From: a virus
Virus record (IMG/VR): IMGVR_UViG_3300045988_132725
Direction: 5' to 3' (one strand)
Length of the DNA: 64,000 nt
The notes below the pieces were generated by a model. The model did not search any database. It was not told where the DNA came from and saw only the letters and a program-made list of their open reading frames with translations. Position 1 is the stretch's first letter. Each line of letters starts with the position of its first letter. Of this stretch, positions 13,712 through 45,362 are shown one piece after another. A program made the translations under genes and the position numbers.

Positions 13712-16084
13712 TCATGAAAGTACACGATTATAATTCCTATAGGTTACTTTAGAACTTGTATTTACAGGAAGCTCTATCACTAGTTCAATTGTGTATATAT
13801 CAATTTGAGTATTATTATTACCTGCTAATGAAGTATGGGTGGTGGTAAATATAAATGTTTCTCCAAAATTTATACCACTGGTAAACCTATAGAACCCCAG
13901 TCCTTCAAACACATATAAAATAATGTTTCGTTTGTTTTCAAAGGCCGTTTTGATTTCATTATATCTAGCTTCTGTTATAGTAAATGTTTGTTCTCCGGTT
14001 CCTCCAGAGATATCCAAATAATCAATAATATAATCAGAGCTGACAGGCTTATAGCTTCCGTTATCCATCAATGCTTTAGATCCATCACCGTTGGTTTTTA
14101 AAGTTAAGCCGCATGAGGTTGGATTATTTCCATCCGACACTACAGAAGAGATCGATAACCCATTACTGCCTCCGGCTATCGTGCTTGCGTATGCGATCAT
14201 GCTACATGCTTTTGTAGTCGCATCCACGGACATACCTACTAAATATTGAGGATATTGAGGTAATATACCGTTGATGAGCATATCAACGCTACTTGTTGTT
14301 CTTGTTATGACACCTTTGTCATAGCACATTCCTATACCTTCATTTATAAATTCTTCGGTTACGGAAAAGAAATAAGTTTTATCTATCTCTGGGGTAGCCG
14401 CAACCAATATATCCCATTCCGCTTGCGTGACCGTTCCCCCTTCACCTGCGTCTCCAATTCTTTTAAATATATCGCTAACCCCCGGTTTTAACATCGTATT
14501 CACCGTGCTCCAATTACCTTTTCCATCAAGGAATTTCGTAGCGTCATCTGGTAGGACATTAACAATACCATTTTGCGTTGTTGAGACTTTTGGTAAAAAG
14601 CGATAGGTTCCGTCATTCGCTAAAAACATATCACTAGATCCATCTGTGGAAATAACACCGTTATCAGCGCTGCAAGCGAGCGTATATTTTGTATCTTGTT
14701 TTTGAATTTCTATAATAATATCTTTGGCATCTGAGTGTAATGAACCAAATATACATTGGGCAAATTCTGGGCCGTAACACAGCCCGTATACGCAATCTGC
14801 GGTTATATATACTCCGATATCCGCTTGGCTGTATTTTACCTTTATGCTTTCATTGTTTTTTATGGCATTCCAAATATCATTGAATTGAGTTTCTGTTATG
14901 GTTTCTGGAGTTGTGCCCCCTACCATGTCGATATATTCTATCAATAAGCATTCTTTCTCCGGTGTATATCCCAAGGCTGATGTGATATTGCTTTTAGTTA
15001 TGGAGATGGTGCCAGAGCTATTCGTTATGTTAGCACCTGTCTTAACACCACCCAGTATTGACCCTGTGGCTGTTGGTAGCGTATAAGTCGTATCCTTATA
15101 ATAAGGGACACCTCCAATAATAGGACAAGTAGTATAACCTGAAACGTTGGTGACAGAAGAACCATTTTTTACCAAACCAGTGCTTCCATTAGCGCCAACC
15201 ACGCTATATGTGGTGTTGTTATCCGCTCCCCATACAGCCGTACCATCTGAACCCCATCGAAGGATCTGACCGGATGCTCCACCTGCTGGGATATGTTTGT
15301 TTCCTGATGTTGTGGGATGAATGTAATTGTTCGCCCCTGTCGCTATGCCATCTAATTTATTCTTATCTGAGGCTGTCATTAGTCCAGACTTAGAACCATT
15401 TGCTCCATTAATATAAAATGAGCTGTTGCTGGTTGCCCCACTACTGGAATTTATTTGATGTATGAGAAATTTAATCTTATCCTCTTCATATTCTATTGAT
15501 GGAGTTTGATCTATAACCCAACCGATTCTTGATAGTTTGTCTTTTTCGATTGTAGTATAATCATTAGCGCTTAACCCTTTTCCGGATACCTTATCAACTT
15601 TGTTTCCTAACGCTGTGTTTATAACCTTACTTTGCACAGGATTCGTACTTGTCGAGCTTAATGAGCTATCAACGGTTATTGGGGACGGGATTTCGGGCAG
15701 CTGGGATAACGGAATCTTGCCGCTAACAAGATCTGCCTTTGTAGCTAACGCACCATCAACATAAGCCTTGTTGACATCGACAGTAGGGATAGTAGGTTTA
15801 TTGGATAAGTCATTATAACTACCTGTTTTTGCGACATTGGATAATCCTGTTATCTCTGACGCTGAATAAGATGGCTTTGTGGCATTTTTTGCCCATGCGC
15901 TAACATCCGATGCTGGACGTGAGTCGCTTAATCTAGGATCATCTTTTTTGACATATGTTCCATCATGAGTATGAGATACTATTTCGCCAGTAAGAACATT
16001 CTCAATGGTTTCTTTTGTTATCTCATTGCTTGATAATATTTTAATTTGCGTATTACTGATTACTTTATTCCCTTGTTTTATCAT
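13712..16084 (-). CDS. fibre / receptor-binding-like structural protein (790 aa)
   Basis: Ser/Thr/Gly/Asn-rich. Has the repeated fibre motif GKGLSANDYTTIEKDKLS / LMTASDKNKLDGI. Confidence 0.65.
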   Translation of the reverse strand: MIKQGNKVISNTQIKILSSNEITKETIENVLTGEIVSHTHDGTYVKKDDPRLSDSRPASDVSAWAKNATKPSYSASEITGLSNVAKTGSYNDLSNKPTIPTVDVNKAYVDGALATKADLVSGKIPLSQLPEIPSPITVDSSLSSTSTNPVQSKVINTALGNKVDKVSGKGLSANDYTTIEKDKLSRIGWVIDQTPSIEYEEDKIKFLIHQINSSSGATSNSSFYINGANGSKSGLMTASDKNKLDGIATGANNYIHPTTSGNKHIPAGGASGQILRWGSDGTAVWGADNNTTYSVVGANGSTGLVKNGSSVTNVSGYTTCPIIGGVPYYKDTTYTLPTATGSILGGVKTGANITNSSGTISITKSNITSALGYTPEKECLLIEYIDMVGGTTPETITETQFNDIWNAIKNNESIKVKYSQADIGVYITADCVYGLCYGPEFAQCIFGSLHSDAKDIIIEIQKQDTKYTLACSADNGVISTDGSSDMFLANDGTYRFLPKVSTTQNGIVNVLPDDATKFLDGKGNWSTVNTMLKPGVSDIFKRIGDAGEGGTVTQAEWDILVAATPEIDKTYFFSVTEEFINEGIGMCYDKGVITRTTSSVDMLINGILPQYPQYLVGMSVDATTKACSMIAYASTIAGGSNGLSISSVVSDGNNPTSCGLTLKTNGDGSKALMDNGSYKPVSSDYIIDYLDISGGTGEQTFTITEARYNEIKTAFENKRNIILYVFEGLGFYRFTSGINFGETFIFTTTHTSLAGNNNTQIDIYTIELVIELPVNTSSKVTYRNYNRVLS

Positions 16085-28090: not shown

Positions 28091-28329
28091 AAATTGTAAA
28101 AATACGAGTTGGTAAGGTGCTCGATCTTGTTACGAATGAATTATTGTATAATGTAGAATTTAAATTCGAGAACCAACGCAGATTCACTGGATATTCAATT
28201 GAAAATTGGAAGGATATATGGGACGCAAAGTTAGCTATCCAGATGCACGATAGAGGAACGACCACATTTCATAAAGTAGGAGCAGATAAGAATGGCAAAA
28301 TTTTTATGTCGAGTAAGATAGAACAGTGA
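28087..28329 (+). CDS. hypothetical protein (80 aa)
   Basis: 4-nt overlaps on both sides. Confidence 0.5.
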   Translation: MKIVKIRVGKVLDLVTNELLYNVEFKFENQRRFTGYSIENWKDIWDAKLAIQMHDRGTTTFHKVGADKNGKIFMSSKIEQ

Positions 28330-29231
28330 ATGTTTTATCTCTCTTTGATGGGATCAGTTGCGGAAGACTGGCTTTGGAAAGAGCTGGCTTCACGTCCATC
28401 AAATATTATGCTAGTGAGATAAGCACAGCAGCCATTACCGTGAGTGAACATAACTATCCAGATCTCATAAGGCTGGGAGATGTTCAAAATTGGAAGGATT
28501 GGGATATAAATTGGAACAGCATTGATTTGCTAATAGGGGGAACGCCGTGCCAAGGTTTCAGCTTTGCTGGTAAGCAATTAAACTTTAATGACCCAAGAAG
28601 TAAGCTCTTTTTCGTTTATCTGGATATTCTCAACCACATCAAATCATTAAATCCTAACGTAAGATTTCTTCTTGAGAATGTGAAGATGAAGCGAGAGTAT
28701 CAAGACATAATTTCCAAATCTCTAGGAGTAGAGCCTATTATGATTAATTCTTCTTTGGTCTCGGCTCAAAATAGAAAAAGAAATTATTGGGCAAACTGGG
28801 GTATAAAGCAACCTCAAGACAAGGGCATACTTTTAAGTGATATCGTCTTGGATGGTATCGTTGAAAAGGATAAAGCTTATTGCCTTACATGTAGATCGGG
28901 GAACGCTAGGGATTATTTTAAGAAGCATCAAAGTAATATAGCGTTTATTCCTTCTTCTTCTGGAGAATACAAGATTGAAAATGGAAAGATCAATATCGTG
29001 TTTAAAAAGTCGCCAGATCAAAACGCTTATACCTTTGACGTAAATATACCGGATGGGAGATACAATATTAGACCTCTCTCTCCTGTTGAATGCGAACGTT
29101 TACAAACATTGCCAGACCATTATACTTCTAGTGTTGGGATAACAGAGAGATATAATCAATTAGGCAATGGCTGGAGCGTAGATACGATTACACATATTTT
29201 AAAAGAACTAAAATCACAAGAACAATCATGA
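28326..29231 (+). CDS. DNA (cytosine-5)-methyltransferase, orphan (no cognate endonuclease seen)
   Basis: Motif I LSLFDGISCG, IV GGTPCQGFSFAGK, VI LLENV, VIII QNRKR, X LGNGWSV. GTG start overlaps the upstream stop. Confidence 0.88.
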   Translation: MNVLSLFDGISCGRLALERAGFTSIKYYASEISTAAITVSEHNYPDLIRLGDVQNWKDWDINWNSIDLLIGGTPCQGFSFAGKQLNFNDPRSKLFFVYLDILNHIKSLNPNVRFLLENVKMKREYQDIISKSLGVEPIMINSSLVSAQNRKRNYWANWGIKQPQDKGILLSDIVLDGIVEKDKAYCLTCRSGNARDYFKKHQSNIAFIPSSSGEYKIENGKINIVFKKSPDQNAYTFDVNIPDGRYNIRPLSPVECERLQTLPDHYTSSVGITERYNQLGNGWSVDTITHILKELKSQEQS

Positions 29232-31894: not shown

Positions 31895-32491
31895 ATGGCA
31901 AAGAAAGGTGTATTGACAACAGCGGATTATCTTCCATTTAAGGAGTATAAGGAAACAATGTCCAAACTTCATCGTGATGGCTATTATCGTGATGAGCTTT
32001 ATTTTATTCTAGCGTATACAACAGCTCTTCGTGTATCGGATTTACGCATGTTAAAATGGGAAGACGTGTTAAATAAGACATGTTTGGTCGTTACCGAGAA
32101 GAAAACTAAGAAGACCAGACCTATACCATTCAATGATGAGTTTAGAAAAATCGTGTCTGAGCTGTATGAATTATTAGGACATCCATACAAGGGTTGGTAC
32201 ATTTTTGAAGGGAACAAGCAACAACCTATGAGTATCCAACATATCAACCGTAGGCTGAAAGATATCAAGGAGAGATATGACTTATCCATTGAGAATTTCT
32301 CTACCCATACGTTTAGGAAAACATTTGGGCGTAATTACTATGAGACGAGAGGAAAAACAGAGGAGGCCCTTATCCAGCTGCAAAAGGTATTTAATCATTC
32401 CAATGTAGGTATCACTTATGTATATATCGGCATTAGAAATGACGAGATCAACGACTTTTACAAAAACATTAAATATAGAGACGATGATTGA
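31895..32491 (+). CDS. small tyrosine recombinase (catalytic domain only, 198 aa)
   Basis: ALRVSDLRMLKWEDV (Arg I), HTFRKTF (H-x-x-R), NHSNVGITYVYIG (His/Tyr). Confidence 0.7.
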   Translation: MAKKGVLTTADYLPFKEYKETMSKLHRDGYYRDELYFILAYTTALRVSDLRMLKWEDVLNKTCLVVTEKKTKKTRPIPFNDEFRKIVSELYELLGHPYKGWYIFEGNKQQPMSIQHINRRLKDIKERYDLSIENFSTHTFRKTFGRNYYETRGKTEEALIQLQKVFNHSNVGITYVYIGIRNDEINDFYKNIKYRDDD

Positions 32492-33086
32492 TTTAAAAAA
32501 GAACAAGGGAAACTACCTAACGTACGATGAATATAGAATTACGCTGGATAGGTTAAGGATGGATCGTATGTGCATTGAGGAGTTATTTTTCGTGCTGGCT
32601 TTCTACACGGGATTAAAACTGTCAGATCTACTTTCCCTCAAATGGAGTGATGTTTTGGACAAGGATGAATTCATATGGATCAAAACCAATCCGTGCAAGA
32701 GGACATTTGCGTTATCGTGGAAAGGACAGGATGTGCGTTCCCGATTGTCATATTTACATGAAGAACTTGGCTCTCCGGAAAAGGATCGATATGTATTTGA
32801 GACGAAAACAGGAAGACATTGTCATAACTCGTTTATTGATGAGTTACTGAAAAGGGTAAGAGATAAATATGATTTACCGGTAAAGCCTCTATACGCAAGC
32901 AGCTTTAGATTAACCTTTTGCCATCATATATATGAGACCGAAGAAAGAAAAGTAAAGGCTATCGCCTTCTTGGATTCATATGTTAGCGGTAAAACTGTTG
33001 ACATAGCCACTAATGGAAGACATATCCCTAGCGAGGAGATAGAAGATGCTTTAAAATCAATGAATATAAAATATAGAAATGACTAA
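32484..33086 (+). CDS. tyrosine-recombinase paralog with degenerate catalytic residues
   Basis: Same layout, but TGLKLSDL (Arg to Lys), SSFRLTF (His to Ser) and no clear H...Y tail. ATG 32484 overlaps the upstream stop (ATGATTGA). Track start 32418 is rejected. Confidence 0.55.
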   Translation: MIDLKKNKGNYLTYDEYRITLDRLRMDRMCIEELFFVLAFYTGLKLSDLLSLKWSDVLDKDEFIWIKTNPCKRTFALSWKGQDVRSRLSYLHEELGSPEKDRYVFETKTGRHCHNSFIDELLKRVRDKYDLPVKPLYASSFRLTFCHHIYETEERKVKAIAFLDSYVSGKTVDIATNGRHIPSEEIEDALKSMNIKYRND

Positions 33087-34211: not shown

Positions 34212-34246
34212 AGCCCCATCTACTTGCTAGCGGATGGGGCTTTCTT
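34212..34246. terminator. bidirectional rho-independent terminator
   Basis: AGCCCCATC (34212-34220) pairs with GATGGGGCT (34233-34241), flanked by an A-run upstream and TTTCTT downstream. Sits between convergent genes. Confidence 0.75.
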
Positions 34247-34334
34247 GTGGATTTATGTGAAGTAAAGTCTAACTATTGCAAATGAGGCTTTTATATTAGT
34301 TCTTGAATGTATAAAAAGAAATGTTCTAGCAGAA

Positions 34335-35453
34335 TCAATCTTTTTCAGGCTTGATATGCTCTGATGGGTCAAGAGATCTTAACTTAAGTAAAAAACTAAA
34401 ATGTTCTTCTAATTCTTTACTTTTTTTTGTGTCTTCTATTTTAAATTTTTCGGTTGATTCTTTAAATTTCTTTATTGATTTTGTGATTTCTCTTCTAAAA
34501 CGAAGTAATGGAACAAATAAAGGGAAAAATAGTCCGCTAAAGATAGCAAAAGATATAGACGATATTAGAGCAAAAGTTTCATTGAAAATAAGTTCTTTGT
34601 CTAATAATACATTATATAAGATGGAAAGTATCGATATTGATAATAAAATCAGTGTAAAATGAATCAAATTGAAGTAATGAGTAAATATACTAGCTCCTTT
34701 CTTTTTAAATTTAAAAATAGCTCCTATAGCCAAGACAATAATGGCTAATACATAAACAATTGTCATAGACCATGATCCTAAAAAAGGTAATAATCCAATA
34801 ACAAAAGTAGATAATATTAAAGAAAAGAGTATTTTAATACAAGTCGTAAGTTTAAATTCATATAATATATCGCCATTGGAAGGATTTCTTTCCTTTATAG
34901 AAATCCAATAATAACTCCATATATATAACCAATATATAAAAGATGTAATAGAAACTAAACTTACTGTATCAATGCACCATTTTATAGCCCCCCAAAAACA
35001 ATCAAATATAAAAATAAATATACAAAATAAAAATGAATAAAAGAAAGAAGACAAAAATTCAGGTGCTTGGGTTATATTTTTGTATAAATTATCAACATTA
35101 TCCCTTAAAGTAAAATAACTTGTTTGATATTCAACAGTTAAGAACTGTAGCTCGTTTACCAAGCTAAGCATTTCTTGTTTACGTGGATTATTTTCTTCTT
35201 TTGATTTAGCAATAGCACTATAGAGAACTTTATAATTACGCTTTTTTAAAACATCTACAAAATTATCCCCTTCTCTGCTTAAAAACGCTTTAGTCCGTTT
35301 GCAAATAATTAACAATAAATTTTGTATAAAATTATTGCTGTTTTTCTCGATGTTGTCAGATCCAAAAAAACATAAAACAGCTAAAGTCATTATTGAACCT
35401 AAAAAAGTTGCACTATTTCCACTAAGAAAAGTGCATAATAGTACTAGAAGCAT
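34335..35453 (-). CDS. polytopic membrane protein (about 7-8 TM, about 110-aa cytoplasmic loop, charged C-tail)
   Basis: Hydrophobic runs FLSSFFYSFLFCIFIFIF, ITSFIYWLYIWSYYWISI, ILFSLILSTFVIGLLPFLG, IVYVLAIIVLAIGAIF, FTLILLSISILSILY and ISSISFAIFSGLFFPLFVPLL. Very AT-rich. Confidence 0.65.
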   Translation of the reverse strand: MLLVLLCTFLSGNSATFLGSIMTLAVLCFFGSDNIEKNSNNFIQNLLLIICKRTKAFLSREGDNFVDVLKKRNYKVLYSAIAKSKEENNPRKQEMLSLVNELQFLTVEYQTSYFTLRDNVDNLYKNITQAPEFLSSFFYSFLFCIFIFIFDCFWGAIKWCIDTVSLVSITSFIYWLYIWSYYWISIKERNPSNGDILYEFKLTTCIKILFSLILSTFVIGLLPFLGSWSMTIVYVLAIIVLAIGAIFKFKKKGASIFTHYFNLIHFTLILLSISILSILYNVLLDKELIFNETFALISSISFAIFSGLFFPLFVPLLRFRREITKSIKKFKESTEKFKIEDTKKSKELEEHFSFLLKLRSLDPSEHIKPEKD

Positions 35454-35456
35454 GTC

Positions 35457-36017
35457 TCAATTAATGATTTTGTGTGATGAAAGTAAAAGGCTTTGAAACT
35501 GTTTCTTTAATGCTTCAGTGTTTTTAGTGTCATTAAAATTTGCGAAAGCAGAATGTTCTTCTGCTCCTAATTCTCTTCTATATTTATTGTCATCACCGAT
35601 TGAAAAATGAAATTCAGGTTTTAGTTCGCTGTCTAGTTTATAAACTAGAACCTGCCCTTCAGCTATTTTATCCTTTATTAAAGGACTAATATTTGTTGCT
35701 AAGTCTTCTATAAAGCTATGTTCTTTTTTTTCTAAAATAATGGAAAGTTTTCCTCCTCTATTTAAAAAATGAGTAATTTGGTCGTATAGTGGCTGCATAG
35801 GGTTATAATCCCCTTCTGTAACTTCTTTATCTACTTTTTCAGCAAAACTAGTTCTGAAGAGAGAACCTTCACCGCAAAGCATATCGATTTCATTGGAGTG
35901 CCTAAAAATCTCTTTCATTATTATAGCATTATGTGATCTGTCAGCATTCCACATTAATTCATTTCTTTTGCTGTTTGCAATAGTCTCTATCTCGACATTA
36001 TACTCTACTAGACTCAT
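35457..36017 (-). CDS. hypothetical soluble 186-aa protein, first gene of the cassette
   Basis: 3-nt gap to the membrane gene. FHFSIGDDNKYRRE...ANFND is only reminiscent of a PLD HxKxxxxD...GSxN layout (Ser replaces Lys). Not a confident family call. Confidence 0.6.
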   Translation of the reverse strand: MSLVEYNVEIETIANSKRNELMWNADRSHNAIIMKEIFRHSNEIDMLCGEGSLFRTSFAEKVDKEVTEGDYNPMQPLYDQITHFLNRGGKLSIILEKKEHSFIEDLATNISPLIKDKIAEGQVLVYKLDSELKPEFHFSIGDDNKYRRELGAEEHSAFANFNDTKNTEALKKQFQSLLLSSHKIIN

Positions 36018-36037
36018 TTTCTCTAAGTTTGGACGTG

Positions 36038-36045
36038 CAAATTTA
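36038..36045 (-). promoter_or_regulatory. -7 promoter box TAAATTTG for the 186-aa/membrane cassette
   Basis: Plus-strand CAAATTTA, 21 nt upstream of the ATG at 36017. Confidence 0.45.
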
Positions 36046-36220
36046 AATAAATAATTTGATATTGCAATCTCTACATTGCATTAAAATCAAAATACATTGG
36101 GAGTTATCTTGGTTTTTTTATGTTCTTGGGCATAATTTGTTTTTGTTAAGAATATGGCTTCGCCTTTACCCCTCCGATAACATCCCTCAGCAACGTAGTT
36201 GAAGCTTAACTATAACTACT

Positions 36221-36266
36221 ACCTTATATGACATATACAGTATATACTACTGTTACTATATAAGGT
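36221..36266. repeat. nested inverted repeat
   Basis: ACCTTATAT (36221-36229) pairs with ATATAAGGT (36258-36266), enclosing ACAGTA-tatac-TACTGT. Confidence 0.6.
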
Positions 36267-36392
36267 AATACCTATTTACAGGATATTACAAGATTGGTTC
36301 GATATGGGTTGATACAAGCTTCTTACCTAAAACTACGGCGATAAGAGGACTTGGTTGACTAATCTAGATATCAATCACCATATCCGAGCATT

Positions 36393-37094
36393 CTACGACA
36401 CTTCCGCCCCTCCACCTATGTAAGCAACTTCGTTCATAAAAGGATAACCGTTCTGTTGGCCAAGTAGTAGGGAACTCTTGTATGCTACTCGTTTTAAACA
36501 GATCGGCGGCGCTTGGTCTCCTTTCCTCCATGGATAAACCAGAATAGGAACAGCGAGATTGCAAACGTCAGAGCCTTGGTTGACCTGTTTCCAATTACTA
36601 GGATACGTCCAGTTACGGATGCGAATCATAGGATTTTTATTTGTCTTCGGTCACTCGTTTACCGGCTCTCGGTTGATGTTATCGGAGTTCGGGTTGTCAG
36701 GCGTAAGACATAGCCCTAGATTATACCACCGATAAACGAGCGTTCGTAAATACTCGATCTTTTTGTTAGATTTTTGTCAATCTGGGAGAAGAGAGGCACG
36801 ACATTGCAGCCTTGTCTTAAAAACTCCCGTAAGGTTTGTTTTATATTCTCCAGCATCCCTCAACGCAGGAGAAGTAGAACGGTTATTTATTCCCGGATAC
36901 TAATTTTTCTGACTCGAATCTACATCAAGTTTCTGTCTGCCAATAGCTGTATCAAAGCTGGGATAAGGAACAAGATCCTCTAACTCATCCCGGAAAGCAT
37001 TAATAAATGCCGATTGAGGATATTTCCGCTATTGTATCGTCACCAAGGTATAACTATCGACCAACCGGTTAGGATTGACCCACATGATAGACAT
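36393..37094 (-). pseudogene. about 233-codon gene interrupted only by four nonsense codons (no frameshift)
   Basis: One minus-strand frame is open from ATG 37092-37094 to TAG 36393-36395, apart from TAG 37029-37031, TAG 36900-36902, TGA 36777-36779 and TGA 36651-36653. A neighbouring frame has about 19 stops over the same span. GC is visibly higher than the flanks. Confidence 0.6.
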
Positions 37095-37125
37095 GGAGCA
37101 ATGGGATAGGGTACAAAGCGTCCAG

Positions 37126-37148
37126 ACCTTCGGATTTGAAGGTTTTAT
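37126..37148 (+). terminator. plus-strand terminator-like hairpin in a region with only minus-strand genes
   Basis: ACCTTC-ggattt-GAAGGT followed by TTTTAT. Confidence 0.3.
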
Positions 37149-37195
37149 ATAAGAATAGGCTGATTTGATCAAAAAGGGTTTGTGGTTGTTTGATA

Positions 37196-37765
37196 TTAAT
37201 TCGTTACGGAAACAATAATACCTACTGCTTCCATATCACTTATAGTTTGCCTAGCTTCATCTAGCGTACTTCCATGATATAAGTGATCTGCAATGATATT
37301 TAATTTAAAAGATATGCCTCTATGTCCATTACTTATAAAGTCAATAAGAGCTTGACCACAAGCAGGACATGGGCTTTTAGATACTCTCATAATTAACGAT
37401 AAAGTTCCGCTGGCATCAGTACCTTCATCGTCAATGGAATGATCTATAAATGATTGAATGCCAGCTATTGCCTCCGTTTCTGCATGGACTCCATCTTCAC
37501 TTATGCCTGTGCCTATTACAACTTCATTGCCATCATCTTCATTTATAAAGGAAACCTGAGCATAAGTAGTATATCCTGTACTTGATGATTCTTCTGTTGT
37601 GATGAGTCTATTGTAAATAAAATCGCCTTGAATACAATCTCCATTGATCCCGGAAATTAAATTATACTGTCGTGTGGCAGACTCCCTATTATCCATTTGG
37701 TATTTGGGATGATTTGTATTGTTTGGAGAAAGTCTGCTTATTGCATTTTCTTGGTATGAATACAT
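37196..37765 (-). CDS. free-standing zinc deaminase (cytidine/nucleic-acid deaminase fold)
   Basis: H-A-E (GVHAETEAIAG) and P-C-x-x-C (SKSPCPACGQ) motifs about 35 residues apart. 189 aa with no other domain. Confidence 0.7.
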   Translation of the reverse strand: MYSYQENAISRLSPNNTNHPKYQMDNRESATRQYNLISGINGDCIQGDFIYNRLITTEESSSTGYTTYAQVSFINEDDGNEVVIGTGISEDGVHAETEAIAGIQSFIDHSIDDEGTDASGTLSLIMRVSKSPCPACGQALIDFISNGHRGISFKLNIIADHLYHGSTLDEARQTISDMEAVGIIVSVTN

Positions 37766-37781
37766 TTGGTTCGTTTTAAAT

Positions 37782-38060
37782 TTATGGATTATTCTTCTCT
37801 CCTCGCCCCTCTTCTCTTCTCACCAGTTTCCCGTCACTTCCAGCCAAGAACTTCTCGCTGATGCCTTGCTTCTCTGATTTAATGGGAATGGTAACTATGT
37901 TGGTTTGTCTTCTGGCGAATATCGGAGCTACTTGGTAAAGAATCTCTATCGCCTCATCCATTGACAGGTAATAATTACCAGCGTATAGACCGAAGAAGTG
38001 ACCTTGATCTCCTCTTGATATCTTGTGGTAATAGTTCCTCTGTAAGGCAATATTTCCCAT
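37782..38060 (-). CDS. hypothetical 92-aa protein, first gene of deaminase operon
   Basis: 16-nt gap to the deaminase ORF. Basic/acidic C-tail. Confidence 0.55.
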   Translation of the reverse strand: MGNIALQRNYYHKISRGDQGHFFGLYAGNYYLSMDEAIEILYQVAPIFARRQTNIVTIPIKSEKQGISEKFLAGSDGKLVRREEGRGEKNNP

Positions 38061-38078
38061 CGAGCGATTAGTTTACCG

Positions 38079-38086
38079 CAAAGTTA
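38079..38086 (-). promoter_or_regulatory. -7 promoter box TAACTTTG for the deaminase operon
   Basis: Plus-strand CAAAGTTA, 18 nt upstream of the ATG at 38060. Confidence 0.45.
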
Positions 38087-38225: not shown

Positions 38226-39188
38226 ATGAAGCGATTGTTGTTTTTGCCCTTGTTGGTATTATGTTTATCTGGATGTATGATGGAAGAGTTGGACAAGGAG
38301 TCTCCAGTTCAAGAAGCGAAAGAATATCTCGTGCCTATAAAGATGGCGGGGGAGATATTGGAGATAGAGGAAGGGCCATTGACGAAAGCTGGAGAGAACA
38401 ATGATTTGTATGGGTTTCAGATAAATAGTAAGAAGGCTGGAGAGACATCTTATTCTCCTTATGCCTATGGTTTGTTTGATGATATAAGTGACGTGAAGGT
38501 TAAGTTGATTAGTGGTGCTGAGTATGAGTTTGTTTGTACTATGGTGAGGGATGGGAAGAGTAAGATTTGGGGAATTAATCATGCCGGCCAAGGCACACCT
38601 TTTAAAATGAACTTAAATAACTATAATGAATTTATATATGATACAAAAGACTCTTATGAGAATGATTTTAAAAGGGGACTCACTGAGGTTGGTATGGAGT
38701 TATATTATGTTATTCCCAATACAGATCGTTACTATGGAACCATAGATAAAATTGATCCATTATCTGCTTCTTCTTTATCAATAAATATGAAAAGAGTTGT
38801 CTTTGGGTTGAAATGTATTGCTGATGGGCTTACGGAAGGGGAGCTTAAAATACGTGTAATGAAATATACATCTGACGATTCTCCTTATTTATCTATTAAG
38901 ACTCGTGGCGATCAATCCGTTGAAGAAATATATACTTTTGATTCTTTTTACTTGGACGATAACGGAGACCTATCTCGTGCATACACTTTAGAAGTTACCC
39001 ATATACACGTAGATAATACACAAGAGATAATAGTAAATGAGTATATGACTTTTAAACGCAATAAGAAAACCATTGTTACAATTAAGATCAAGAAGAGTAA
39101 TGGTGATACGGGTACTAAAGGAGTAGATGTTGTGTTAGACGATACCCCAATGACTGATGGAGATAAAGTGGTAATAGACGGCAAGTAA
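38226..39188 (+). CDS. lipoprotein (320 aa)
   Basis: Signal peptide plus lipobox MKRLLFLPLLVLCLSGC. Confidence 0.7.
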   Translation: MKRLLFLPLLVLCLSGCMMEELDKESPVQEAKEYLVPIKMAGEILEIEEGPLTKAGENNDLYGFQINSKKAGETSYSPYAYGLFDDISDVKVKLISGAEYEFVCTMVRDGKSKIWGINHAGQGTPFKMNLNNYNEFIYDTKDSYENDFKRGLTEVGMELYYVIPNTDRYYGTIDKIDPLSASSLSINMKRVVFGLKCIADGLTEGELKIRVMKYTSDDSPYLSIKTRGDQSVEEIYTFDSFYLDDNGDLSRAYTLEVTHIHVDNTQEIIVNEYMTFKRNKKTIVTIKIKKSNGDTGTKGVDVVLDDTPMTDGDKVVIDGK

Positions 39189-42346: not shown

Positions 42347-42380
42347 TGTATATTATGTATATTTGCGAAAAATAAAGAAT

Positions 42381-42698
42381 ATGGCAACGATAGTATTGGA
42401 GAAAAAACGAAAGAACATAGATTTACCAGTGGAAACATTGAAAAAGTTGTCTATCATGGCAGCATCACAGGGTAAAAGTTTAAAAGCGTTTATAGAAAAT
42501 ATTTTGATAGCAAAAGCCGATACTCTGGACGTGCAAGTTTCATTGAATCCCAGTCCAAGTAACGACCCGTGGTTTGACAACCCGAAAAACGTGGCTGCTG
42601 TAACACGAGGTATTGAGGATTTAAAACAGAAAAAAGTTGTATCTATGAATCTCGGTGAATCTTTGGATGATTTTCTTAATCGTGTAGAGCATGTATAA
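42381..42698 (+). CDS. antitoxin partner of YoeB-like toxin (105 aa)
   Basis: ATG 42381 (the track uses TTG 42363). Overlaps the toxin ATG by 8 nt. TATATTTG -7 box at 42358-42365. Confidence 0.6.
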   Translation: MATIVLEKKRKNIDLPVETLKKLSIMAASQGKSLKAFIENILIAKADTLDVQVSLNPSPSNDPWFDNPKNVAAVTRGIEDLKQKKVVSMNLGESLDDFLNRVEHV

Positions 42699-42963
42699 AA
42701 TAGAATTTACTAAAGAAGCTATTAAAGATGCTTCAAGATTACGGAAGTCGGATATGCAATCTTATAAGAAGCTTGATAAGTTAATAAATGAACTGAAAGA
42801 ACACCCTACCACAGGCACGGGGCAAGTGGAGCAATTGAAAGGGAGTCTTTCGGGATATTGGAGCAGACGAATAAACAATCAACACCGAATAATCTATTCC
42901 ATACATGAAGAAATTGTAACGGTGGAGGTTGTATCGGTTGGAGGTCATTACGGAGATAAATAA
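42691..42963 (+). CDS. yoeB: type II toxin, YoeB/Txe (RelE-superfamily) mRNA interferase
   Basis: KGSLSGYWSRRINNQHRIIYSIHEEIVTVEVVSVGGHY matches the YoeB signature (LSGYWSRRI...HR..Y...GHY). Confidence 0.8.
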   Translation: MYKIEFTKEAIKDASRLRKSDMQSYKKLDKLINELKEHPTTGTGQVEQLKGSLSGYWSRRINNQHRIIYSIHEEIVTVEVVSVGGHYGDK

Positions 42964-44534: not shown

Positions 44535-44777
44535 ATGTTTACGGAAGTTGTACAAGCTAATTACGTGGATGGATACCGTATAGCGGTGTTGTTCAATGAC
44601 GGGGTCAAGAAAATCGTGGATTTCACGAACCTGTTAAAAAGGAATATGCCGGTATTTAAGCCTCTGGAGAACATAGACCTGTTTAAGAAATTCACAGTAA
44701 CAGATACTTTAGAGTGGGATAACGGAAACATTGATATAGCTCCAGAGTATTTGTATGAGAATGGGGTTAAGGTATAA
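44535..44777 (+). CDS. DUF2442-family protein
   Basis: VVQANYVDGYRIAVLFNDGVKKIVDF...LEWDNGNIDIAPEYLYE is the typical DUF2442 pattern. Partner of DUF4160. Confidence 0.7.
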   Translation: MFTEVVQANYVDGYRIAVLFNDGVKKIVDFTNLLKRNMPVFKPLENIDLFKKFTVTDTLEWDNGNIDIAPEYLYENGVKV

Positions 44778-45083: not shown

Positions 45084-45362
45084 ATGTTTGCGATAGCTTT
45101 TGATATGGTCATTTCAGACCTTAAACAAAATTACGGGGATCCGTATAATAATGCTTATTTTGATATTAGTAACATAATGGAGAAGTATGGATTTTATAGG
45201 GCACAAGGGAGCTTGTATCTAACAGAGAATAGAGACATGGCAAACCTGTTCCGTGCTATTGAGGCTTTGAAGAAAACGGAGTGGTTCAGAAAATCAGTAC
45301 GTGACATAAGAACATTTAGGGTAGAGGATTGGTCAAACTTCACGGATTTTATGAAAGAATAA
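45084..45362 (+). CDS. vapD: VapD-family (Cas2-like fold) endoribonuclease
   Basis: MFAIAFDMVISDLKQNYG...YGFYRAQGSLYLTENRDMANLFRAIEALKKTEWFRKSVRDIRTFRVEDWSNFTDF matches the VapD pattern residue for residue in the conserved blocks. Confidence 0.8.
   Translation: MFAIAFDMVISDLKQNYGDPYNNAYFDISNIMEKYGFYRAQGSLYLTENRDMANLFRAIEALKKTEWFRKSVRDIRTFRVEDWSNFTDFMKE

Follow-up and report, generated by a model that had tools for sequence, protein, structure and literature searches.

Introduction

The locus described here raises the question of why a temperate phage that already encodes a conventional dCMP deaminase should carry a second, small and free-standing putative zinc deaminase, and of where this enzyme belongs among the known deaminase families. 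AID/APOBEC enzymes are central in vertebrate antibody diversification and antiviral restriction, and their origin has been traced just vaguely, to bacterial toxin domains. The window, i.e., the whole stretch of viral DNA that was analyzed (64,000 nucleotides; IMG/VR record IMGVR_UViG_3300045988_132725), belongs to a widespread temperate phage, which is very commonly found as a prophage in Parabacteroides distasonis, a bacterium of the gut. An earlier note, made from the sequence of the window, had drawn attention to the deaminase and its neighbors.

Results and Discussion

A second zinc deaminase, separate from the housekeeping enzyme

The deaminase, its motifs, and the housekeeping gene are located as follows.

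37196..37765, minus strand: zinc deaminase, AID/APOBEC-like, free-standing, 189 aa (open reading frame [ORF], Pfam, PDB sequence search, and AF2/Foldseek)
37478..37486, minus strand: H94-A95-E96, zinc ligand and catalytic glutamate, in GVHAETEAIAG (sequence, and alignment with the HAE of APOBEC3H)
37358..37372, minus strand: P132-C133-P-A-C136, both cysteine zinc ligands, inside S-K-S-P-C (SKSPCPACGQ; aligned with SPCPSC of APOBEC3H)
37271..37288, minus strand: D160-H-L-Y163-H-G165, loop past strand 4, counterpart of APOBEC loop 7 (R-L/I-Y) (aligned with A-S-R-L-Y-Y of APOBEC3H)
61454..62068, plus strand: conventional T4-type dCMP deaminase (Pfam, PHROG, and PDB)

The 189-aa protein has the HxE and PCxxC zinc ligands by which the zinc-dependent cytidine/nucleic-acid deaminase superfamily is recognized; both motifs, which the earlier note had reported, can be read in the ORF and are invariant in P0006, a relative with 42% identity. 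In a 4-sequence alignment that includes P0006, H94, E96, C133, and C136 are invariant, as are the loop residues D160, H161, Y163, H164, and G165. In the AF2 model the loop after strand 4 comprises 8 residues, D160-T167, with the invariant D-H-x-Y-H-G, and in a profile-based PDB sequence search Y163 aligned with the RLY tyrosine of A3H; Tyr130, its equivalent in A3A, forms a stack with the target cytosine (PMC8313598). The AF2 model, which was computed from the 4-sequence alignment and is of moderate quality, places the core at residues 67-189 in the order b1 b2 a(HAE) b3 a(PCxxC) b4 a b5 (pLDDT 65-79). Residues 1-66 are of low confidence in this model and had zero matches in Pfam, PHROGs, NCBIfam, and PADLOC. 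Searches of the same four collections returned deaminase-fold matches, covering residues ~76-187, and no other domain, in agreement with the earlier description of a protein free of trafficking, NTPase, or other domains; likewise, a Pfam domain search found no signal peptide, trafficking, or secretion domain. The protein is strongly acidic, with a pI of 4.4 and a net charge of -16 (-14 in the core), an uncommon property among enzymes that bind nucleic acids.

The separate dCMP deaminase that had been noted at 61454 is a clear member of its family (Pfam, 1e-26; PHROG 174, 8e-56; T4 enzyme 1VQ2, 6e-32), and the 189-aa protein shows no similarity to it in a pairwise comparison. Near this gene we found an RNA ligase gene only and no cytosine-hypermodification genes, which would represent a possible route to self-protection.

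Family assignment

The nine top-scoring Pfam matches of the deaminase are all AID/APOBEC-clan families; four of the nine exceed their gathering cut-offs, each marginally, namely APOBEC3 (29.6 bits, cut-off 27), SNAD4 (29.5, cut-off 27), NAD1 (28.1, cut-off 27), and APOBEC_N (27.3, cut-off 25). By comparison, dCMP_cyt_deam_1 (PF00383) scored 15.5 bits against a cut-off of 25, ~12-14 bits under these four families, and the bacterial toxin-deaminase families of Pfam, including MafB19-deam, gave zero matches. P0006 showed the same Pfam ranking, with all scores sub-threshold (best, 24.2 bits). A PDB sequence search matched the deaminase to APOBECs only, with A3H at E=0.0027 when a profile was used; this alignment spans the HAE, the SPCPxC, the L-x-dFI helix, and the L-x-I-x-A-x-x-L-Y strand and loop. 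No dCMP deaminase, CDA, or TadA structure was matched in this search (for dCMP deaminase, none at E<=10), even though the PDB does contain dCMP-type deaminases, as the ORF at 61454 retrieved such structures in the same search. When the AF2 model was compared to the PDB with Foldseek, the best 50 matches were all A3G, A1, A3C, A3F, AID, A3B, A3H, or A3A (E 4e-7 to 3e-6). The predicted succession of strand 151-159, helix 168-180, and strand 184-187 (pLDDT 60-79), i.e., a helix between strands 4 and 5, corresponds to the topology of the helix-4 division.

Two features set the protein apart from the described family. The tryptophan of SWSPC is absent, with S-K-S-P-C found in both the window deaminase and P0006; a tryptophan before CxxC has been listed as an AID/APOBEC (AAD) feature (PMC3239186). 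In addition, the protein terminates at N189, 2 residues past predicted strand 5, and the C-terminal helices 5 and 6 are hence missing; P0006 terminates likewise, and the Pfam alignments stop at ~115 of 137 positions in the APOBEC3 profile and at ~130 of 170 in the APOBEC_N profile.

Taken from sequence and predicted fold, the nearest known family thus appears to be AID/APOBEC rather than TadA, dCMP deaminases, or bacterial toxin deaminases, and the protein is probably a minimal, catalytically intact zinc deaminase of the helix-4 division. The earlier view that the phage has a further deaminase, of the nucleic-acid-editing type and without a housekeeping role, is supported by this placement, which Pfam, PDB sequences, and predicted fold have in common. 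That note had named clustering with TadA, riboflavin, or guanine deaminases in housekeeping contexts, or motifs failing to align in a protein that is inactive and non-toxic, as results that would speak against it; the protein does not group with TadA, riboflavin/guanine, or dCMP deaminases, and its motifs align with APOBEC3H. Specifically for TadA, no match was obtained in the PDB search, and the gene sits in a prophage accessory slot.

An alternative that we consider unlikely is that the enzyme deaminates nucleotides or nucleosides (dCTP, dCMP, cytidine, or a cytosine-containing small molecule or signal), either in a nucleotide-depleting defense comparable to the DcdV/dCTP-deaminase defenses or as a metabolic accessory. 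The acidic surface (pI 4.4) suits a small molecule better than a polyanion, and a weak PHROG match to dCMP deaminase was found (E=0.012). In a structural search against viral models (BFVD), the best matches were phage dCMP deaminases at similar TM-scores (0.43 vs. 0.45-0.50), so that fold alone separates these families modestly. Furthermore, an adjoining slot in a sibling prophage holds an HD protein of the dNTP-depleting type, suggesting that nucleotide depletion is used in this region. Against this reading stand the low dCMP_cyt_deam_1 score, the PDB sequence search without dCMP, CDA, or TadA structures, the absence of a DcdV-like P-loop/NTPase domain and of any PADLOC match (E<=1), and the dCMP deaminase that the phage already encodes. 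Nucleotide depletion may serve as a mode of defense, and we favor it less than polynucleotide editing.

The 92-aa gene and the limits of the cassette

The deaminase gene is preceded by a small ORF and a putative promoter.

37782..38060, minus strand: 92-aa basic protein, pI 9.3; backbone gene at the border of slot 1, with a promoter common to the deaminase, not cargo-specific (ORF and sibling locus maps)
38079..38086, minus strand: TAACTTTG, candidate Bacteroidetes-type -7 box for the 92-aa/deaminase transcript (consensus match only)
37790..37821, minus strand: purine-rich tract at the 3' end of the 92-aa gene (alignment with fused contigs)
37159..37844, minus strand: slot 1, exchangeable cassette with the deaminase (blastn break points and locus maps)

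The order reported earlier, i.e., box, 92-aa ORF, 16-nt gap, and deaminase, was confirmed at these coordinates, with the box being a consensus match. It lies 19 nt 5' of the 92-aa ATG, with CTTG another 19 nt upstream, and is kept in contigs L015 and L016; its 8-mer pattern has 80 matches in the window compared to 69 +/- 8 expected, which represents no enrichment, and the promoter reading is therefore one of position. The 92-aa and deaminase ORFs are in different frames, and the deaminase frame stays open for 18 codons 5' of its ATG. Three further contigs have +1 and +4 nt in the purine-rich tract, which joins the two ORFs in frame and yields a fusion of 311 aa as called in L015 and L016 (P0003, the start of which lies upstream) and one of 295 aa in L017, counted from the ATG that matches the window's 92-aa start. 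AF2 was uninformative for the 92-aa protein (pLDDT 50, pTM 0.22); other alleles of this protein terminate in an AT-hook-like RGRP.

Sibling prophages retain the 92-aa gene (65-68% identity) and have the deaminase replaced by an unrelated 381-aa gene (c381) or by a 540-aa gene on the opposite strand (c540). As determined by blastn against siblings, homology is lost within the 3'-terminal part of the 92-aa gene and regained 14-37 nt past the deaminase stop, giving slot 1 limits of 37183-37844 against the c540 alleles and 37159-37806 against the c381 allele. Since siblings keep the 92-aa gene and swap the gene downstream, the deaminase represents a single-gene cassette of ~0.65 kb, and not the two-gene unit previously described.

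These results bear on the proposal, also made earlier, that the deaminase is an interbacterial or intracellular toxin and the 92-aa protein its immunity partner, which we now regard as very improbable. One promoter with two ORFs 16 nt apart fits such a pair, small toxins of the deaminase type are well documented along with their immunity proteins (Iyer 2011, PMC3239186), and cargo swap at the 3' end of a conserved ORF with in-frame fusions recalls the cassette swapping of polymorphic toxins. The 92-aa gene, however, persists with unrelated cargo, even with cargo on the opposite strand, and cannot be read as a cognate partner; it is also missing from the P0006 locus. Moreover, the deaminase has no trafficking domain or signal peptide and matched no bacterial toxin-deaminase family in Pfam, and the DNA 3' of it is non-coding, whereas immunity genes usually sit 3' of the toxin gene.

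An accessory region with independently exchanged cargo

The deaminase cassette occupies one of three adjacent variable slots in a lysogeny-proximal accessory region.

34240..36149, minus strand: slot 2, with a 186-aa protein and a 372-aa multi-pass membrane protein (p186+p372), low G+C (locus maps, blastn, and G+C)

In siblings, slot 2 contains CmdTAC/PD-T4-9 (PADLOC matches at 1e-13 and 2.5e-26), an HD dGTPase-like protein, or a three-gene set (410, 105, and 165 aa; the c410 trio), or is empty. Three slot-1 cargos (deaminase, c381, and c540) and five slot-2 states assort independently. Through slot 2, the locus shows the variable cargo, conserved flanks, and known defense systems by which hot spots are recognized; slot-1 cargo has no match to a known defense system in PADLOC, and the deaminase's neighbors, c381, c540, and the c410 trio yielded nothing informative in PADLOC, PHROGs, NCBIfam, or PDB searches. 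The region adjoins an AntA antirepressor, integrases, and a CI-like HTH gene, with the prophage end ~4.7 kb off in contig L003, and the deaminase gene shares its strand with the CI-like repressor gene. Judged by gene content, the locus is an accessory/defense hot spot beside the antirepressor and integrases. A hypervariable lipoprotein gene lies next door, its alleles differing at 27-54% of residues as well as in presence/absence. No recombination core motif common to all slot borders was found. An integrase split by integration was considered and rejected, as both ORFs align to one and the same segment of the integrase profiles and represent tandem paralogues.

Relatives and distribution

An exhaustive phmmer search of 1.84 billion cluster representatives yielded P0006 as the single true distant relative; two further low-scoring matches turned out to be repeat proteins, and a profile search for additional family members gained nothing. 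By these searches, the deaminase is nearly an orphan in a family of two lineages only, which makes conservation analysis thin. The identical 189-aa protein is found on at least 1000 metagenome contigs, some >1 Mb, which argues for maintenance by selection. In IMG/VR, no lineage other than the present phage lineage has the region; in the INPHARED phage collection, the region and the 1-kb block described below were both unmatched, and a scan of GTDB species representatives with the 92-aa profile as query gave no matches. The literature searched holds no report of a free-standing APOBEC-like deaminase from Bacteroidales or phage.

At the P0006 locus (contigs L004 and L005, with the same arrangement in both), the deaminase gene is convergent with genes for SRAP (abasic-site shielding), a Y-family polymerase, and a UmuD-like S24 peptidase. 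This setting, together with the hypervariable lipoprotein gene that adjoins in the window, could point to an AID-like mutator or diversifier that raises the mutation rate of host, phage, or a target locus in concert with uracil excision, abasic-site shielding, and translesion synthesis. We consider this improbable: the window and the sibling prophages are without an SRAP/UmuDC cassette, SRAP adjacency is known from two contigs of one arrangement, and the differences among lipoprotein alleles (27-54% of residues, presence/absence) are not a C-to-T pattern.

It is also quite improbable that the gene encodes a phage counter-defense enzyme, which might deaminate a cytosine-containing immune signal or damage host defense nucleic acids, or that it is decaying and non-functional. 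Anti-defense genes do also occur in phage accessory slots, and the fold accommodates small substrates; nevertheless, genes expressed in the lysogen typically lie where this one does, next to the integrase and repressor genes and on the strand of the repressor. Decay is at odds with catalytic residues kept at 42% identity and with identical sequence on at least 1000 contigs.

A possible role in prophage-encoded defense

Our preferred reading, which we hold tentatively and at somewhat less than even odds, is that of a polynucleotide cytosine deaminase which the lysogen produces and which edits foreign DNA or RNA as it enters; its substrate, its expression in the lysogen, and its role in defense are what we infer from family and location. 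In the lysogen state, the enzyme would act on single-stranded DNA that is exposed in incoming elements and deaminate its cytosines to uracil; such elements could be conjugating DNA or other phages, ssDNA microviruses among them, and RNA may be the substrate instead. Uracil excision by the host would then convert these lesions to mutations and breaks, and the prophage would in this way shield its host from competitors. An immunity gene would be unnecessary, as APOBEC-type ssDNA deaminases mutate bacteria with intact uracil repair rather than killing them.

The computed results do not separate RNA from ssDNA as substrate, and an RNA-editing toxin, acting by C-to-U (or A-to-I) changes on tRNA or mRNA and either arresting translation upon infection (abortive infection) or reprogramming the host, has a small probability in our view, slightly below that of a nucleotide-level enzyme. 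RNA editors exist in the AID/APOBEC clan (APOBEC1), and CmdTAC, found in the adjoining slot, targets mRNA (PMC11618068); on the other hand, the cassette includes no antitoxin or sensor gene, and similarity to TadA or another tRNA deaminase is absent.

A stronger form of the editing proposal, which we regard as rather doubtful, is that the protein is a true prokaryotic-viral APOBEC, i.e., a free-standing ssDNA cytosine deaminase with a 123-residue core by which a gut Bacteroidales prophage hypermutates and destroys incoming phage or conjugative ssDNA. Going further, one might suppose that the 92-aa protein, which is basic, has an AT-hook-like tail, and is fused in frame to the deaminase in three contigs, carries the acidic enzyme to DNA.

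With animal AID/APOBEC enzymes (APOBEC3H/3G/3A, AID, APOBEC1; PF18771, PF08210, PF18750, PF18778), the window protein shares the HAE, SPCxxC, and L-x-dFI helix, the strand-4/loop-7 signature L-x-I-x-A-x-x-L-Y with its stacking tyrosine, and the predicted helix between strands 4 and 5. It differs in a core of ~123 residues with helices 5/6 missing, K for W in SWSPC, acidity, prokaryotic-viral origin, and a 66-residue N-terminal region, and the similarity is marginal (27-30 bits). The novel AID/APOBEC-like toxin domains of bacteria (Wolbachia prophage WOCauB3 B3gp45, Pseudomonas brassicacearum; PMC3239186) are likewise prokaryotic, prophage-borne, and without an adjoining immunity gene. These domains, however, are C-terminal in giant secreted endosymbiont proteins and thought to target eukaryotic hosts (Iyer et al. 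2011, PMC3239186), and by their description they retain the tryptophan before CxxC and two extra C-terminal helices (PMC3239186); the window protein has neither and is free-standing, 189 aa long, and placed in a Bacteroidales phage hot spot.

Interbacterial deaminase toxins (DddA/DddI, SsdA/SsdI; BURPS668_1122, SCP1.201, MafB19, and DYW-like clades) are also small zinc deaminases that act on nucleic acid in a conflict setting, but the window protein is without a secretion/trafficking module, cognate immunity gene, or Pfam match to those clades, and its predicted helix-4 topology contrasts with the C-terminal-hairpin topology of most toxin clades (PMC3239186). DcdV and dCTP deaminase defenses (bioRxiv 10.1101/2021.04.26.441389) similarly employ a deaminase as a mobile-element defense gene; DcdV, however, combines an N-terminal NTPase with a dCMP-deaminase-type domain, dCTP deaminases have another fold, and no PADLOC or Pfam link to the window protein was found. 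As for the region itself, CmdTAC (PD-T4-9)-bearing prophage and satellite hot spots of E. coli (PMC9519451, PMC11618068) show the same conserved flanks, independently assorting cargo, known defense systems, and a nearby integrase; the window locus differs in being from Bacteroidales, in a ~1-kb non-coding block that separates the slots, and in uncharacterized slot-1 cargo.

As a minimal free-standing AID/APOBEC relative in a prophage hot spot, the deaminase would allow the idea that bacteria use mutational editing for immunity to be tested directly in a gut commensal that can be cultured. If the proposal were true, editing-based innate immunity of the APOBEC3 type would exist in bacteria, in a minimal form near the ancestor of animal AID/APOBECs, and few natural DNA deaminases available for base editing would be as compact; if active on DNA, the enzyme would also introduce C-to-T mutations into the genomes of Parabacteroides and offer a very small base-editor scaffold. 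The locus further defines a three-slot accessory region of Bacteroidales phages, with c381, c540, p186+p372, and the c410 trio as candidate new defense genes.

The non-coding block between slots 1 and 2

36150..37158, minus strand: ~1-kb non-coding backbone block between slots 1 and 2, candidate structured RNA, not deaminase-specific (sibling alignment and compensatory pairs)

A "nonsense-riddled gene" had been described downstream of the deaminase as part of a distinctive layout. Positions 36018-37195 instead correspond to a conserved non-coding block, neither a recoded gene nor a recognizable pseudogene; stops of all three kinds (TAA, TAG, and TGA) occur in each of the six frames, which eliminates stop-codon reassignment. 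The block is 89-100% identical across all siblings irrespective of cargo and, as it accompanies every cargo, falls outside any deaminase-specific layout. Identity of 96-100% does not indicate special constraint, as backbone proteins, e.g., AntA, are equally conserved. Compensatory base-pair changes make the block a candidate structured RNA: nine compensatory pairs were found compared to 1.8 +/- 1.1 in shuffles (0/500 reach 9) and 0-1 in slid controls, a signal that depends on the 89%-identical copy in L023, since siblings at 96-100% identity alone gave zero such pairs. Rfam searches assigned no family to the candidate RNA, whether gathering thresholds or E<=1 was applied. Thermodynamic z-scores are ordinary except at 36100-36400, and the two ends of the block have a 16-nt imperfect repeat in common.

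Gene anatomy and source phage

The deaminase ORF and the 92-aa ORF lie at the positions assigned to them in the earlier note, and both zinc motifs (GVHAETEAIAG and SKSPCPACGQ) were found in the former. A separate, conventional dCMP deaminase, also claimed there, is confirmed by its database matches.

37196-37765, minus strand: zinc deaminase ORF, 189 aa
37782-38060, minus strand: 92-aa ORF, 16 nt upstream of the deaminase, in a different frame
38079-38086, minus strand: TAACTTTG box, 19 nt ahead of the ATG of the 92-aa ORF, inside a 165-nt divergent intergenic region
61454-62068: standard dCMP deaminase (Pfam, 1e-26; PHROG 174, 8e-56; T4 enzyme 1VQ2, 6e-32)

No similarity between this dCMP deaminase and the 189-aa protein could be detected. 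Because the TAACTTTG-type 8-mer pattern is not enriched across the window (80 matches vs. 69 ± 8 expected), it is only the position of the box that supports its reading as a promoter.

An identical protein, annotated as hypothetical, is known from Parabacteroides distasonis, and at least 1000 contigs carry it, a number of them over 1 Mb long; a search of the INPHARED phage collection gave no similar sequence. Phage genes around the deaminase encode AntA/KilA-N antirepressors, two small tyrosine recombinases, a CI-like HTH protein, a DNA ligase and a C5 methylase, and in L003, a locus on another contig, host genes start directly after one recombinase gene, approximately 4.7 kb from the deaminase. 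This makes the window a temperate phage of a human gut commensal, with the deaminase within a lysogeny-proximal accessory region.

The recombinases are encoded by overlapping ORFs of approximately 200 aa (31895-32491 and 32418-33086, plus strand), which are tandem small recombinases, since each matches the same catalytic part of tyrosine-integrase profiles; this also rules out that they are halves of one gene. As L003 has one recombinase (14680-15369), which host genes abut, and lacks the other, the attachment site may be located at these two genes or between them. The window also encodes a C5 cytosine DNA methylase (28326-29231, plus strand), tRNA-Glu(TTC) and tRNA-Met(CAT) (58187-58258 and 59009-59083) and an RNA ligase (62040-62714, plus strand) overlapping the end of the dCMP deaminase gene, near which no cytosine-hypermodification genes were seen. 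Pfam marks precomputed for L001, an identical locus, identify a ParE/YoeB-type toxin (42691-42963) with a likely antitoxin ORF upstream (the pair spanning 42363-42963, plus strand) and, in the same phage arm, a DUF2442 protein (44535-44777) and another 92-aa ORF with a weak Cas2 match (45084-45362, plus strand).

Classification of the deaminase

The best nine Pfam matches of the 189-aa protein all belong to the AID/APOBEC clan; APOBEC3 (29.6 bits), SNAD4 (29.5), NAD1 (28.1) and APOBEC_N (27.3) each narrowly exceeded their cut-offs, followed by APOBEC2, APOBEC1, APOBEC4-like, APOBEC4 and NAD2. The general dCMP/cytidine deaminase family reached only 15.5 bits (cut-off 25), and bacterial toxin-deaminase families of Pfam gave no match. 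When all PDB sequences were searched, with the single sequence or a 4-sequence profile, APOBECs were the only deaminases found (A3H, E=0.0027 with the profile), and the alignment covers HAE, SPCPxC, the next helix (L-x-dFI) and the strand-plus-loop L-x-I-x-A-x-x-L-Y.

An AlphaFold2 model (mean pLDDT 55; 65-79 for residues 67-189, below 50 for residues 1-66) has the topology b1-b2-helix(HAE)-b3-helix(PCxxC)-b4-helix-b5 of the helix-4 division. Its best 50 Foldseek matches in the PDB were all A3G, APOBEC1, A3C, A3F, AID, A3B, A3H or A3A (E 4e-7 to 3e-6; TM 0.41-0.50, with the first third of the query disordered). The invariant Y163, in a conserved D-H-L-Y-H-G loop, aligned with the APOBEC loop-7 tyrosine, which in A3A stacks on the target cytosine (PMC8313598). 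Against predicted viral structures (BFVD), by contrast, phage dCMP deaminases matched best with similar TM-scores, so that the modelled fold alone separates deaminase classes only modestly. Unlike canonical AID/APOBECs, the protein lacks both C-terminal helices, ending two residues past strand 5, and has lysine in place of the SWSPC tryptophan; it is also strongly acidic (pI 4.4, net charge -16). For these reasons, together with the viral-model matches, we describe it as AID/APOBEC-like and not as a canonical member. The acidic surface and the BFVD matches would also suit deamination at the nucleotide level, which we consider unlikely; homology points to cytosine within a polynucleotide as the target.

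A nearly orphan family

Among 1.84 billion cluster representatives, an exhaustive phmmer search recovered, apart from fragments and variants of the 189-aa protein itself, a single true distant relative, P0006 (188 aa, 42% identity), which is also phage-borne; two repeat proteins were spurious matches. A profile search added no further relatives, and the family is thus nearly an orphan. All four catalytic residues, like the loop that follows strand 4, are unchanged between the two lineages.

The P0006 gene is convergent with a cassette encoding SRAP (abasic-site shielding), a Y-family polymerase (IMS) and an S24 UmuD-like peptidase (L004 6948-9367; L005 946-3365), in the same arrangement in each of these two contigs. 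This set echoes vertebrate hypermutation (AID, uracil excision, translesion synthesis) and would fit an AID-like mutator role, which we regard as improbable for the deaminase.

In bacteria, AID/APOBEC-like domains have been described as toxin domains at the C-terminus of giant proteins, among them one of a Wolbachia prophage (PMC3239186), whereas the 189-aa deaminase is free-standing and encoded by a Bacteroidales phage. In the literature searched, we found neither a free-standing deaminase of this type from a Bacteroidales phage nor any case of an editing-type deaminase carried as defence cargo by a prophage.

Exchangeable cargo and the 92-aa gene

Sibling prophages drawn from Logan, IMG/VR and ENA assemblies have backbones with 94-100% nucleotide identity and differ in fixed places. 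Past slot 1, which holds the deaminase in the window, come a block of approximately 1 kb and then slot 2, the content of which assorts independently of slot 1.

Contents of the two slots in the window and in sibling loci
Slot 1, deaminase: window, L001-L003, L014, L015-L017
Slot 1, unrelated 381-aa gene (c381): L007 (7889-9034, plus strand)
Slot 1, unrelated 540-aa gene (c540), on the opposite strand: L006 (8301-9923, minus strand), L008-L010, L018-L023
Slot 2, 186-aa protein and 372-aa membrane protein: window, several siblings
Slot 2, CmdTAC/PD-T4-9 (PADLOC toxin, 1.4e-13; SecB-like chaperone, 2.5e-26): L007
Slot 2, 495-aa HD-domain protein (PADLOC dGTPase model, 1.2e-6; Pfam HD): L021
Slot 2, three-gene set of 410, 105 and 165 aa: L008 (9289-11354, plus strand), L019
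Slot 2, empty: L018

Homology to the c540 alleles stops at 37845 and restarts at 37182, and to the c381 allele stops at 37807 and restarts at 37158; the exchangeable unit is therefore approximately 0.65 kb, comprising the final codons of the 92-aa gene, the deaminase gene and the 16-nt spacer between them, with no second gene. The 92-aa protein as a cognate partner of the deaminase, proposed in the earlier note, is not supported, as the 92-aa gene is kept in every sibling (61-77% protein identity in those from the collection scans), including beside unrelated cargo, and is absent at the P0006 locus. Its product cannot be a deaminase-specific immunity protein, and a toxin/immunity model is very improbable. 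With a pI of 9.3 the 92-aa protein is basic; in several alleles the C-terminus carries an AT-hook-like RGRP motif, and an insertion hot spot after GLYAG holds 9 residues in L007 (7524-7859) and about 190 in the single L023 allele (5341-6201); an AlphaFold2 model was uninformative. In three contigs, +1 and +4 nt in a purine-rich tract (approximately 37806-37821) bring the 92-aa ORF in frame with the deaminase (fused ORFs called at 311 aa in L015/L016 and 295 aa in L017), so fusion is evidently tolerated. That the basic protein helps the acidic deaminase to reach nucleic acid is speculation.

On the other side of the 92-aa gene, a divergent lipoprotein gene (38226-39188, plus strand) has a hypervariable middle (46-73% identity among otherwise near-identical phages) and is absent from several siblings (L009, L015, L017, L018, L021); we regard this as a probable third accessory slot, e.g., for a surface or exclusion lipoprotein. 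Given these varied contents, including CmdTAC/PD-T4-9 (PMC9519451, PMC11618068), the deaminase is one alternative cargo among several in an accessory region of multiple slots, and this region demonstrably carries anti-phage systems.

Searches of Pfam, PADLOC, PHROGs and the PDB with c540, c381 and the 410/105/165-aa set were uninformative; all of these are candidate defence genes that have yet to be described. The slot-2 pair of the window (34335-36017, minus strand; G+C very low, 26-32%), in which the gene for the multi-pass 372-aa membrane protein overlaps that for the 186-aa protein, has a homologous pair directly upstream of the P0006 gene in an unrelated phage (L004 4113-5508), where a 189-aa protein with 24% identity (E=9e-11) to the 186-aa protein and faint PLD-type matches (MkoC, DrmC) is followed by a membrane protein; the pair may be an undescribed two-gene defence module.

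Proposed role

We propose that the deaminase protects the lysogen, mainly because it is hot-spot cargo, on the repressor strand and near the integrases; as the slot-1 cargos match no known defence system, this is guilt by association. The whole reading, i.e., polynucleotide cytosine deamination that would protect the lysogen from invading DNA, is tentative, at somewhat below an even chance. If it works as AID/APOBEC enzymes do, the deaminase would act on exposed single-stranded DNA, and the excision of uracils from an invader's DNA would then cause mutations and breaks. RNA might also be a substrate, and RNA editing as the main activity is rather unlikely; counter-defence or decay is quite improbable. 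AID/APOBEC enzymes act in E. coli as mutators and not as lethal toxins, and a single-gene cassette without an immunity gene is hence plausible for the protective role. Bacteroidales meet single-stranded DNA microviruses and conjugative elements that enter as single-stranded DNA, and these may be the natural targets. For the deaminase, the anatomy is clear, the homology intriguing, the function reached by inference and the family tiny.

The non-coding block between the slots

The region 36150-37158 (minus strand), previously taken for a nonsense-riddled gene, does have all three stop codons in each of its frames and offers no usable reading frame; it proved, however, to be a non-coding backbone block present in every sibling with any cargo (among them L006, L007, L008, L009, L017, L021 and L023) and is thus not specific to the deaminase. 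Its identity in siblings (96-100%) is no higher than that of backbone genes, and conservation alone therefore says little. Rfam gave no match and thermodynamic z-scores were ordinary. When a minimum free energy structure computed from the window sequence alone, on the deaminase strand, was compared with the more diverged L023 copy (89% identity), nine base pairs, all from this one sequence, had changed on both sides with pairing kept, two local hairpins having two each. Shuffles gave 1.8 ± 1.1 (0 of 500 reached nine), structures slid by 1-3 columns gave 0-1, and the opposite strand gave six. The block is thus a candidate large structured RNA, probably on the deaminase strand. Its two ends carry an imperfect 16-nt direct repeat (36139-36154 and 37142-37157; GTTTTTGTTAAGAATA / GTTTTATATAAGAATA, plus strand), a motif that did not turn up at the other slot borders; the repeat may have arisen by chance, serve as a recombination core in cargo exchange or be the footprint of an insertion.
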